DNA from: Actinobacteria bacterium UBA7524
GTDB taxonomy: Bacteria; Actinomycetota; Coriobacteriia; Anaerosomatales; UBA912
Assembly (NCBI GenBank): GCA_002478275.1
Contig: DLMY01000015.1
Location: 1 to 34,363 of the forward strand
Direction of reading: 5' to 3'
DNA: 34,363 nucleotides
Positions 15,001 to 18,000 of this stretch are shown piece by piece. Position numbers: made by a program. Numbering within the stretch: position 1 is the stretch's first letter; every line of letters begins with the position of its first letter.

Positions 15001-18000
15001 GCGTTGCCGATGTCCTCTGCAGCCATTATGAGGATGCGGCGTGCGATGAACTTCGGGTCCTCTCCCCCGTGCACCATTCTGGCAAGCCAGTAGACCGCGG
15101 CGTCTGGATCGCTTCCGCGCATCGACTTGATGAAGGCGGATATCACGTCGTAGTGAGTATCGCCGGTCTTGTCATAAGGCAGGATGCGTGTCGGAGTCGC
15201 CTCGCGAACGTGGTCCAGAGTGATACGCGCGACTGCTCCGCCGCCGGAGACACCGGCCTGCTGTGCAGCCAGCTCGAGCGTCGTGAGTGCGACCCTGGCG
15301 TCTCCGCCCGCTGTCAGGACCACGTACTCCTCGGCATCTGATTCGATCTCGAATCGGCCGGCAAGTCCGCGCTCGTCGAGCAGTGCCGTGCGTACGATGT
15401 CCCGAATCTCCCCATCGGTGAGGACTGCCAGCTCGAGCACGCGGGACCGACTGATGAGCGGAGCGTTCACCTCGAAGAACGGGTTTTCCGTGGTCGCGCC
15501 GATCAGGACCACAAGCCGGTCCTCCACCGCATGCAGAAGGGCGTCCTGCTGCGACTTGGAGAAGCGGTGGATCTCATCGACGAAAAGTATCGTGCGCTGG
15601 CCGGACAAACCGAGCCGCTCACGCGCTTGTTCGATGGCGTTTCGGATGTCGGCTACACCTGAGGTGACCGCAGAGAGCTCCGTGAAAGCCGAGCGAGTGG
15701 TGCTGGCGATGATACGCGCCAGGCTGGTCTTGCCCGTGCCCGCAGGTCCGTAGAAGATGAGCGAACTGAGGCTGTCTTGCTCGATCGCTGAGCGCAGGGC
15801 GGTACCGGGGCCCACGACATCTGTCTGACCGACGAACTCCTCGAGCGTGCGTGGACGCATACGAGCCGCAAGCGGCAGGCCCTCTTCCATCGCCCGGCGC
15901 GCGGATTCGTCGAACAGGCTTTCCATGGCGACCTACCCGACCGCGCCGGTCACTGTGTGGCCCGAAGGACCTCACGCTCAATGGCGACCGCGTCGTTATA
16001 TCCGCGCATTCGAAACGTGATGTGCGCCTGCGTGTCGACGAAGACGATATAGGGTGTGTAGTCGACGGCCAGATAATCGCTACCGATGAGCTTGGCTGCC
16101 TTGTCAGCGGTATCGTCATCGGACAACCCGGGCAGGACTTCGATCTTACCGTCCTCGGAAGTCTTCACGTACTTCCCGACATCGAAGGCCACGAGATCGA
16201 TCAGCCCACGGTAGTCGGAAATCACCGAGTCGATCTCCTCGCGCTGGTCGTCAGACGCCCGCTGAGTGGAATCGTAGAAGAACAGGATCATCGGCTGCTT
16301 GGTCTCCAGCCTATCGAGTACAGCCGAGGGGATGACCGTCTCGTCAGTGGGAAACGGCTCGAACTCCTGCTCGGGAAGCGGCGATAGCACGTCGGCCTCT
16401 GACTCGGCGTCCGTAGGCGCTACGACGCCCTCGACGACCTCTTCCTGGACGGCCGCTTCTTCGCCACCTTCGTCGCCTCCCCCGCATCCGGCAAGTGAGA
16501 AGGCCATCACTGCTGCGAACACTACTGCGACTACTGCTACGACTGGTCTGCGCATCTGCTTCCTCCGGGCCGTTGGCCTGTAAGCGAGCTCGCCCTGCCG
16601 TGGTCCGACGCGGTGTACCTGCTCTCCGCAGGTGGGTGCCCGCACCGACGGTCTCCAGCGTCCCCGACGAGGGGGATTCCTGTCCTCCGCGGAATGGTGA
16701 GGCTCCCTACTAAGAAGTGTTGGTTCAGCCGCATGATGCCGGATCCACGGACAAGGCGTAGCCCATACATAGTGTAGCGTGCGCCGACGACACGGACAAC
16801 GCGCCCGGTCAGCGACCAGCATTCGGCGCGTCTCAGTCGACCTTGAGATGCACCTCGCGCAGCTGTCGAGCTGAGACCGCATCGGGTGCCCCGGTGAGAG
16901 GGCAGGCGCCAGACGAGGTCTTGGGAAACGCTATGACGTCGCGTATCGACTCGGCTCCCGCCAGTATCATCACGAGGCGATCGAGACCGAGTGCGATGCC
17001 GCCATGCGGAGGAGCCCCGAACGAGAGAGCCTCGAGCAGGAATCCGAACTTGTCTCGCGCCTCTTCCGGGCCGATGTCCATGAGCGCGAGTATGCGCTCC
17101 TGCAGGACCGCGTCGTGCACACGTAACGTCCCACCACCGATCTCCAGCCCGTTGACGACCAGGTCGTAGCTGTACGAGAGCACGGTGCCCGGGTCAGTCT
17201 CCAGTACCTCCAGATGCTCGTCGAAGGGCCTGGTGAAGGGGTGATGGTTCGCCTGCCAGCGGTTTTCGTCCTCGTCCCACTTGAACAGCGGGAAATCGAC
17301 GACCCACAGCGGGTGGAAGCCCTCCGCATGCAGCCCGAGCTCCTCGGCAAGATGCACGCGCAGCACGCCGAGGACCTCGTTTGCCACGTCGTGCTCATCA
17401 GCGACCATCAGTGCGAGGTCACCCGGCTCGACGGCGAGAGTCTCGCGCAGCGCGACCATCTCGGCCTCGGTGAAGAACTTCGCTATCGGTGAGCGGACCT
17501 CCCCGTCGCTTCCGAACGCGACCCACGCAAGGCCCTTCGCGCCCGAGTCGATGGCCAGCTGGTTGAGCGCGTCGATCTTCCCGCGGCTGAAGTCCCCGGC
17601 GCCCTTGGCGTTGATGCCCTTCACGCGGCCACCGGACGCGAGCGCACCGGAGAAGACCTTGAACTCACTCTCGCGGAACACATCCACAAGACAATGCAGC
17701 TCCATCCCGTACCGGGTGTCTGGACGGTCGGAGCCGTAGCGATCCATCGCCTGTGCGTAAGTCATGCGCTCCAGCGCTTCTGGCCACGGCGCGCCTGCAG
17801 CTTCCATGACCTCGGCCATGACGTCTTCCATCATCGAAAGCACGTCGTCTTGCGTCACGAAGCTCATCTCGATGTCCACCTGCGTGAACTCGGGCTGACG
17901 GTCGGCGCGCAGGTCCTCGTCGCGGAAGCAGCGCGCGATCTGGTAGTAGCGCTCGACACCGCCCACCATGAGCAGCTGCTTGAAGAGCTGTGGCGACTGA

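Follow-up and report, generated by a model that had tools for sequence, protein, structure and literature searches.

A probable canonical 6S RNA gene downstream of aspS in a Coriobacteriia genome and the distribution of 6S RNA across Actinomycetota

The window, by which we mean the whole 34,363-nt stretch of DNA analysed, carries on its minus strand the order aspS, candidate 6S RNA gene, lipoprotein gene and rarA. The aspartyl-tRNA synthetase gene aspS (16833..18599, minus strand; PF00152, PF02938 and PF01336) is the upstream neighbour of an RNA gene of about 182 nt (16584..16765, minus strand), identified by its RF00013 match, fold and covariation, which comprises a closing stem, a central bulge and a stem at the apex. 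The start codon of a predicted 201-aa lipoprotein (15950..16555, minus strand), with a signal peptide and lipobox recognised by eye and a weak thioredoxin-like match (PF13098, E 5e-4, below cut-off), lies 28 nt past the RNA and is followed by the gene for the AAA+ ATPase RarA/MgsA (14604..15926, minus strand; PF12002 and PF16193). The first-pass annotation had placed the RNA between aspS and rarA; aspS does adjoin it, whereas rarA is not its direct neighbour because the lipoprotein gene sits between them. Elsewhere in the window, a protein of 819 aa that has a spermidine synthase domain is encoded between hisS and aspS on the opposite strand (18598-21057, plus strand), an insertion not seen in related loci showing both hisS and aspS. 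An alternative sigma70-family factor (12949-13890, minus strand) lies two genes downstream of rarA, and such a factor is also found close to rarA in several Coriobacteriia loci. The flanks hold a cluster of small GTPase, DUF4388 and roadblock/LC7 genes adjoining a type IV pilus/T2SS ATPase (1141-4384), and a multiheme cytochrome gene (MtrC/MtrF-like, c7 domains) with two ResB/cytochrome c assembly gene pairs (23728-34315).

A search with the Rfam models aligned RF00013 to 16584-16765 on the minus strand over model positions 1-187, its full length, at 44.7 bits, which is below the gathering cut-off of 46.4, a curation threshold and not a biological feature. This was the only Rfam match at E<=1 between 14000 and 19500 and the single RF00013 match in the genome (E 6.2e-8), where a wider profile found no second 6S copy. 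The 182-nt length falls inside the range of about 150-210 nt given for 6S RNA in the accessible text of PMC4191392; across 71 loci of the class, lengths ran from 157 to 214 nt with a median of 172. Folding of the same strand gave a structure more stable than 200 of 200 shuffles (z -3.88), and the full-length match together with this fold bears out the earlier call of a 6S RNA at this place.

To this we added two alignments. The first, built from sequence only, held 31 loci (28 from the window's order and three from other orders of the class), and here 91.9% of cells could pair in the canonical rod as against 36-46% with the partners slid, a control that favours the rod because its outer and apical helices came from RNAalifold on the same alignment. 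Both sides had changed in 31 of 55 pairs, a number reached in none of 500 shuffles, although that control is inflated by the relatedness of the 31 loci. The second alignment held 89 loci and was fitted to the 6S model, and so leans towards it; 50 of the 55 pairs covaried, and the CC:GG pairs flanking the bulge were invariant in all 89. Covariation in these alignments thus supports the rod and its three parts, the closing stem, the central bulge and the apical stem. In the window's own copy one bulge-adjacent pair that is intact in 29 of the 31 loci is broken, and at minimum energy this sequence folds with much of the bulge closed, the form carrying the 3' hairpin lying 1.4 kcal/mol above it. 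We are confident that the minus-strand sequence at 16584-16765 represents a genuine, canonical 6S RNA; it adds one member to a known family, and the molecule itself is ordinary.

Immediately 5' of the gene we found a predicted -10 box, TACACT (16771..16776, minus strand), preceded at 17 nt by a predicted -35 box, TTGTCC (16794..16799, minus strand), which agrees with the consensus at four of six positions. A TAnnnT box occupies the -10 position in 70 of 71 class loci, whereas two control windows showed one in 15 and 10 of the 71, so that the conservation first reported from ten aligned loci extends to the larger set. A promoter scanner run over 16400-16950 found neither promoter nor terminator, and TTGTCC-17-TACACT falls one match below its threshold. 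Judging from these boxes, we infer that the RNA would be transcribed from its own sigma70-type (sigma-A-type) promoter; read-through from the 6S gene into the lipoprotein gene is possible. Just 5' of the -35 region, 31 of the 71 class loci (among them L114, L128, L132 and L143), from gut-type families, carry a GTCAAR motif, often inside an AAGTC-N2-GACTT palindrome, which may be a divergent -35 box or a repressor or activator site. As to transcripts, 14 RNA runs of the relative G118 hold the stretch, and assembled contigs of four were examined. A separate 204-nt contig in run X12 covers the 3' 127 nt of the 6S gene and 77 nt beyond, a weak hint of expression in one run of four; in X1 and X3 one contig spans the whole stretch and is uninformative, and in X14 the gene is uncovered, which proves nothing.

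The alignment consensus leaves the 5' central bulge (16708..16721, minus strand) unpaired, and the RNAalifold consensus places a hairpin in the 3' central bulge (16617..16633, minus strand) that competes with the bulge-adjacent helix. In fold predictions for the window's copy this hairpin forms when the template strand is kept unpaired, mimicking a 14-nt pRNA. We placed the predicted start of the pRNA template at C 16719, with an adjacent A (minus strand), by analogy to the available text of PMC8414754 and anchored on the CC that is invariant in 89 of 89 loci. The base beside the predicted start is a purine in 114 of 120 loci (A in 83), and the predicted first base of the pRNA is G in 95 of 120 and A in 18, of which 17 are Eggerthellaceae-type; the purine and the first-base pattern fit features described in the accessible portion of PMC8414754. 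On this placement, Eggerthellaceae would begin their pRNA with ATP and most other lineages with GTP. The split is testable because the B. subtilis polymerase, according to the part of PMC3753640 at hand, needs GTP for efficient pRNA synthesis.

In the portion of PMC11077062 available, 6S RNA is described as a decoy for the sigma-A holoenzyme that is freed by pRNA synthesis. By family resemblance, the window's RNA would accumulate and, its rod and central bulge mimicking an open promoter, bind the sigma-A holoenzyme in slow growth. Release would follow once polymerase used the 5' bulge as template for a short pRNA, with a predicted start at C 16719 and GTP as first nucleotide, and this synthesis would let the 3' bulge hairpin form.

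Among known RNAs, the window's 6S most resembles the 6S-1 type of B. subtilis and lactic acid bacteria, being alike in length, rod, 5' bulge with opposite hairpin (described for both hosts in the accessible text of PMC8414754), adenine beside the predicted pRNA start, aspS/rarA neighbourhood and single copy. It differs in its host phylum, in that most Coriobacteriia copies score below the Rfam cut-off, in the lipoprotein gene that in the window's order lies between it and rarA, and in a host sigma-A with one region 4.2 arginine fewer. The GG of its pRNA would stand at positions 4/5 by the predicted start, as in E. coli, versus 5/6 in lactic acid bacteria as given in the same partial source.

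The partner in the predicted binding is a primary sigma factor that is intact in the window's genome. Its region 4.2 reads ESKTLCKLRHPSR, one arginine fewer than the Firmicutes-type EAKALRKLRHPSR and close to that of HrdB, ESKTMSKLRHPSR. The arginine following 'L' is replaced in the window's sigma-A and in the best-scoring primary sigma of 15 of 15 genomes examined, with or without 6S RNA, and the remaining basic residues of the region are retained. Klocko reportedly found in 2009 that the basic surface of region 4.2 matters. The lacking arginine is a caveat for the predicted holoenzyme binding; as a cause of 6S loss, a change in region 4.2 was considered and rejected, as it fails to separate genomes with and without the RNA and does not explain the loss.

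Since actinobacterial sigma-A is without part of this basic patch, the RNA could be homologous to 6S by descent and yet bind polymerase in another way today, taking either the core enzyme as Ms1 does or the holoenzyme weakly. The replacement in all 15 primary sigmas agrees with such a change, as does the existence in the phylum of other polymerase-binding RNAs, Ms1 and CoRP (in the part of PMC11077062 seen). We nevertheless consider it quite unlikely: the RNA measures about 180 rather than about 300 nt, none of the 11 class genomes tested has an RF02566 match, its bulge, its predicted pRNA template and the helix beside them either do not vary or covary as in 6S RNA, and region 4.2 retains its other basic residues.

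Ms1 itself (RF02566; M. smegmatis Ms1 and S. coelicolor scr3559) shares with the window's RNA the phylum and a polymerase-binding, promoter-mimic hairpin, the latter predicted for the 6S. It differs in being about 300 nt long, in binding core enzyme and in its HAD-hydrolase/oxidoreductase synteny, all as given in the accessible text of PMC9130861. Ms1 was rejected as an identity for the window's RNA on account of the 182-nt length, the neighbours (aspS, the lipoprotein gene and rarA) and the absence of any RF02566 match in the window's genome as well as in the 11 class genomes. Four of 151 genomes matched RF02566, all from one family without 6S RNA; absence of Ms1 elsewhere weighs little because the Rfam model has a narrow reach (it found 0 of 3 in the large-genome family f39). 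It has been argued, in the portion of PMC6582537 available, that Ms1 is a variant of 6S RNA; contrary to this, none of the four Ms1 loci scored above 12 bits with the 6S model, so that they gave no 6S-like match, and the true 6S locus lies elsewhere. CoRP of Corynebacterium glutamicum is likewise an abundant polymerase-associated RNA of Actinomycetota and a separate type as described in the part of PMC11077062 at hand; it is set apart from the window's 6S by description only.

The occurrence of the gene across the class had been put at 56 of 61 genomes, and the larger sample strengthens this. RF00013 matched in 112 of 121 class genomes, never more than once per genome, with 33 matches above the cut-off and 79 below it, a count in which stricter search filters missed even the window's own genome. 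A class-specific model regained six of the eight other misses, so that RF00013, the class model and the own-genome search together gave one copy in 119 of 121; the two genomes without a match are 85-86% complete. Genomes named Eggerthellaceae, Olsenella, Coriobacteriaceae and Slackia had one match each, at 27 to 50 bits. The assignment of the class to Coriobacteriia stands as well: a clade of 16 rows (SH-aLRT 100) unites the window's RarA with every one of the seven records named Coriobacteriia and with seven genomes of the same class. That clade also includes the RarA of L037, from a record titled Oribacterium, which is either a mislabelled bin or a transfer.

The surroundings of the gene are less constant than the gene. 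In the window's order, where 30 of the 32 loci extend 1.5 kb to each side, the lipoprotein gene is present at all 32, rarA at 29 and aspS at 28. Over the rest of the class (3 kb to each side, one locus 1.5 kb), aspS was found at three of 39 loci and rarA at 16, being divergent in ten. The synteny proposed from five loci (rarA in five, aspS in four) thus holds for the window's order and is not class-wide, the 6S of gut families being divergent to rarA or placed beside other neighbours. When open reading frames were scanned at 25 loci, eight, from two gut families, had a family-4 glycosyltransferase as the upstream divergent gene. For the window, the comparison with the Firmicutes 6S-1 position is apt. 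The B. subtilis 6S-1 gene reportedly lies by aspS, as Suzuma is said to have described in 2002. Synteny with rarA is given for the B. subtilis 6S-1 and lactic acid bacteria 6S genes in the accessible text of PMC8414754. Two further arrangements came up among the loci: L176 and L262 (G135) have the 6S gene inverted in place with aspS and rarA on either side, and L147 (G005) has a partial tmRNA match at 2827-2902, about 100 nt 3' of the 6S gene on the same strand.

Outside the class, an even sample of 140 genomes gave RF00013 matches in 46, of which 43 exceeded the cut-off; the highest score was 101.6 bits. With the class model and a single local search included, the positives rose to 52; RF00013 alone had therefore missed six, and absences here rest on models that miss some true genes. 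Of the positive loci fetched, 42 of 46 contained aspS. The genomes were sorted into 16 class-level groups, four confirmed by class searches and the rest inferred, and nine carried matches. 6S RNA was present in 11 of 11 genomes of group f25/f38/f44/f57/f61, 10 of 10 of f32/f40, 11 of 11 of f26/f53 (14 of 18 in a deeper class sample), 8 of 10 of f34/f41/f47/f50/f60, 6 of 10 of f35/f42/f48, 3 of 5 of f22/f37/f52, 1 of 10 of f31, and the single genomes of f23 and of f24. In the remaining seven groups, RF00013 and the class model found no 6S RNA in 71 genomes, which include seven unpublished ones (G121, G137, G165, G232, G257, G197 and G202) whose part in the analysis is confined to these zero counts. 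Deeper searches for 6S RNA were likewise negative in 151 genomes of a class read as Actinomycetes because it holds the Ms1-positive family and full-length RbpA, in 101 genomes of a class grouping with named Acidimicrobiia, and in 40 of a class grouping with Actinomycetes on RpoB; the same search recovered the 6S RNAs of E. coli and B. subtilis. The framing of 6S RNA as peculiar to Coriobacteriia must accordingly be dropped, and since stronger matches occur in nine of the 16 other groups, the exception consists of Actinomycetes, Acidimicrobiia and some other classes and not of the whole phylum. Two of the copies outside the class are unusual in themselves. That at L204:2501-2636 (G122), 136 nt and 55 bits, has lost most of the apical stem and kept the bulge and closing stem, and that of G145 (L200 and L235; 65 bits) is the only one among ten f31 genomes, with aspS inverted between the RNA and hisS.

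The neighbourhood of aspS and rarA, the same as that of 6S-1 in B. subtilis and lactic acid bacteria, would also fit a sideways gain by Coriobacteriia from Firmicutes, through shared gut or anaerobic habitats, in a phylum whose ancestor had no 6S RNA. Nine other class-level groups, however, have 6S RNA at the same place, the flanking AspS and RarA cluster with Actinomycetota classes and not with the Bacillota rows, and in the negative classes the order of the genes persists while the gap has closed, so that we regard such a gain as very improbable. Least credible of all is that the sequence is no independent RNA and belongs to the downstream lipoprotein gene, either as coding sequence that extends the N-terminus of its product or as a leader acting in cis: in the window an ORF (15950-16882) does run open through it, no terminator was found and the next start codon is 28 nt away, but in the window's order 20 of 32 loci close that frame within the RNA, so that it is not coding, and the RNA persists next to unrelated genes in either orientation with covarying base pairs.

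The reading we favour has 6S RNA present in the ancestor of Actinomycetota and lost since, probably on more than one occasion. The RNA would have stood at the 3' end of aspS. Coriobacteriia and several further classes would have retained it, gut families would have relocated or inverted it, and Actinomycetes, Acidimicrobiia and some other classes would have lost it. At the aspS-rarA junction, six named Acidimicrobiia loci have gaps of 34-153 nt, often too short for a 6S RNA, and three others have gaps of 526-1009 nt with no 6S match; in the negative groups, 15 of 24 loci with both genes have gaps of 43-146 nt, measured between tblastn ends. A degenerate 6S near aspS was sought with the class model in 46 loci of negative genomes, and the search was repeated with filters off at 19 of them, with an HMM, and with Rfam at E<=0.1 at 14; only short hairpins were found. 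The best of them scored 19.7 bits. It is a hairpin of 90 nt, located immediately behind the aspS stop codon in a genome without 6S RNA (L246:2162-2252, G243), and contains a perfect inverted repeat of 21 bp; three relatives do not share it, and it is either a remnant or a small mobile element.

Trees were consulted on the number of losses. The f26/f53 class and f23 sit inside an RpoB clade (support 99) made up otherwise of negative classes. Forcing the negative classes to be monophyletic met weak rejection with RpoB (p-AU 0.044) and strong rejection with AspS (p-AU 0.0002), in tests that used single genes and quick LG+G4 trees of 18 and 20 rows taken from 41 and 96, with a constrained group named after earlier trees had been seen and with AspS itself linked to the 6S RNA. 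In the AspS tree f26/f53 groups together with Actinomycetes and its sister (99), a node that RpoB does not settle and that the RarA tree is without. Patchy occurrence in f31 (1 of 10), f47 (0 of 2) and f48 (0 of 4) suggests further losses, or could reflect missed genes; two of these groups remained negative when searched again whole with the class model. Put together, that 6S RNA was ancestral and lost several times independently, that f26/f53 shows the state before the loss in Actinomycetes, and that Eggerthellaceae start their pRNA with ATP is a tentative proposal, somewhat more apt to fail than to hold. If it is true, the f26/f53 genomes, with 6S RNA between aspS and rarA, would record the condition shortly before Actinomycetes gave up 6S RNA and came to rely on Ms1 or CoRP.

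Gain of RbpA was also examined and rejected as the single cause of loss. RbpA is absent in 11 class genomes and full-length in 10 of 10 Actinomycetes-type genomes, but f26 has both an RbpA-like gene and 6S RNA, and the Acidimicrobiia-type has neither. The f26 match (G259, G195 and G234 among others; 9 of 10 genomes) is short, covering model positions of about 19-76, and lies over the Pfam cut-off; the genomes that carry it also carry 6S RNA, outside Actinomycetes.

These results bear on how the phylum has been described. That it has been called the exception lacking 6S RNA is borne out by the accessible parts of two papers: PMC9130861 names Actinobacteria as the single exception, and PMC11077062 has 6S RNA unidentified in Actinobacteria save for one Streptomyces candidate. 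The genera named in those parts are Actinomycetes, neither mentions Coriobacteriia there, and one supplement of PMC9130861, as far as it was available, contains none of six non-Actinomycetes names. Literature searches linking 6S RNA to Coriobacteriia or Eggerthella found no paper, though the earlier 6S survey (Wehner 2014) may list them; those pairing 6S RNA with Actinomycetota returned, in the portions available, other topics only. Nor did they find a paper stating that the RNA was ancestral and then lost in the phylum, on which earlier surveys may also bear. High-scoring copies have very likely been annotated automatically already, because many exceed the Rfam cut-off.

The worthwhile part of the finding is the distribution, in which the textbook exception reads as a loss inside the phylum, and probably as a repeated one. 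Genetic tools reportedly exist for Eggerthella lenta and other Coriobacteriia, which makes these bacteria a test system. The exception shrinks to some classes and becomes a loss that can be mapped to positions in the tree, and this recasts the question of why mycobacteria and streptomycetes use Ms1, as the pattern of loss does not line up cleanly with the change in region 4.2 or with the acquisition of an RbpA-like gene.
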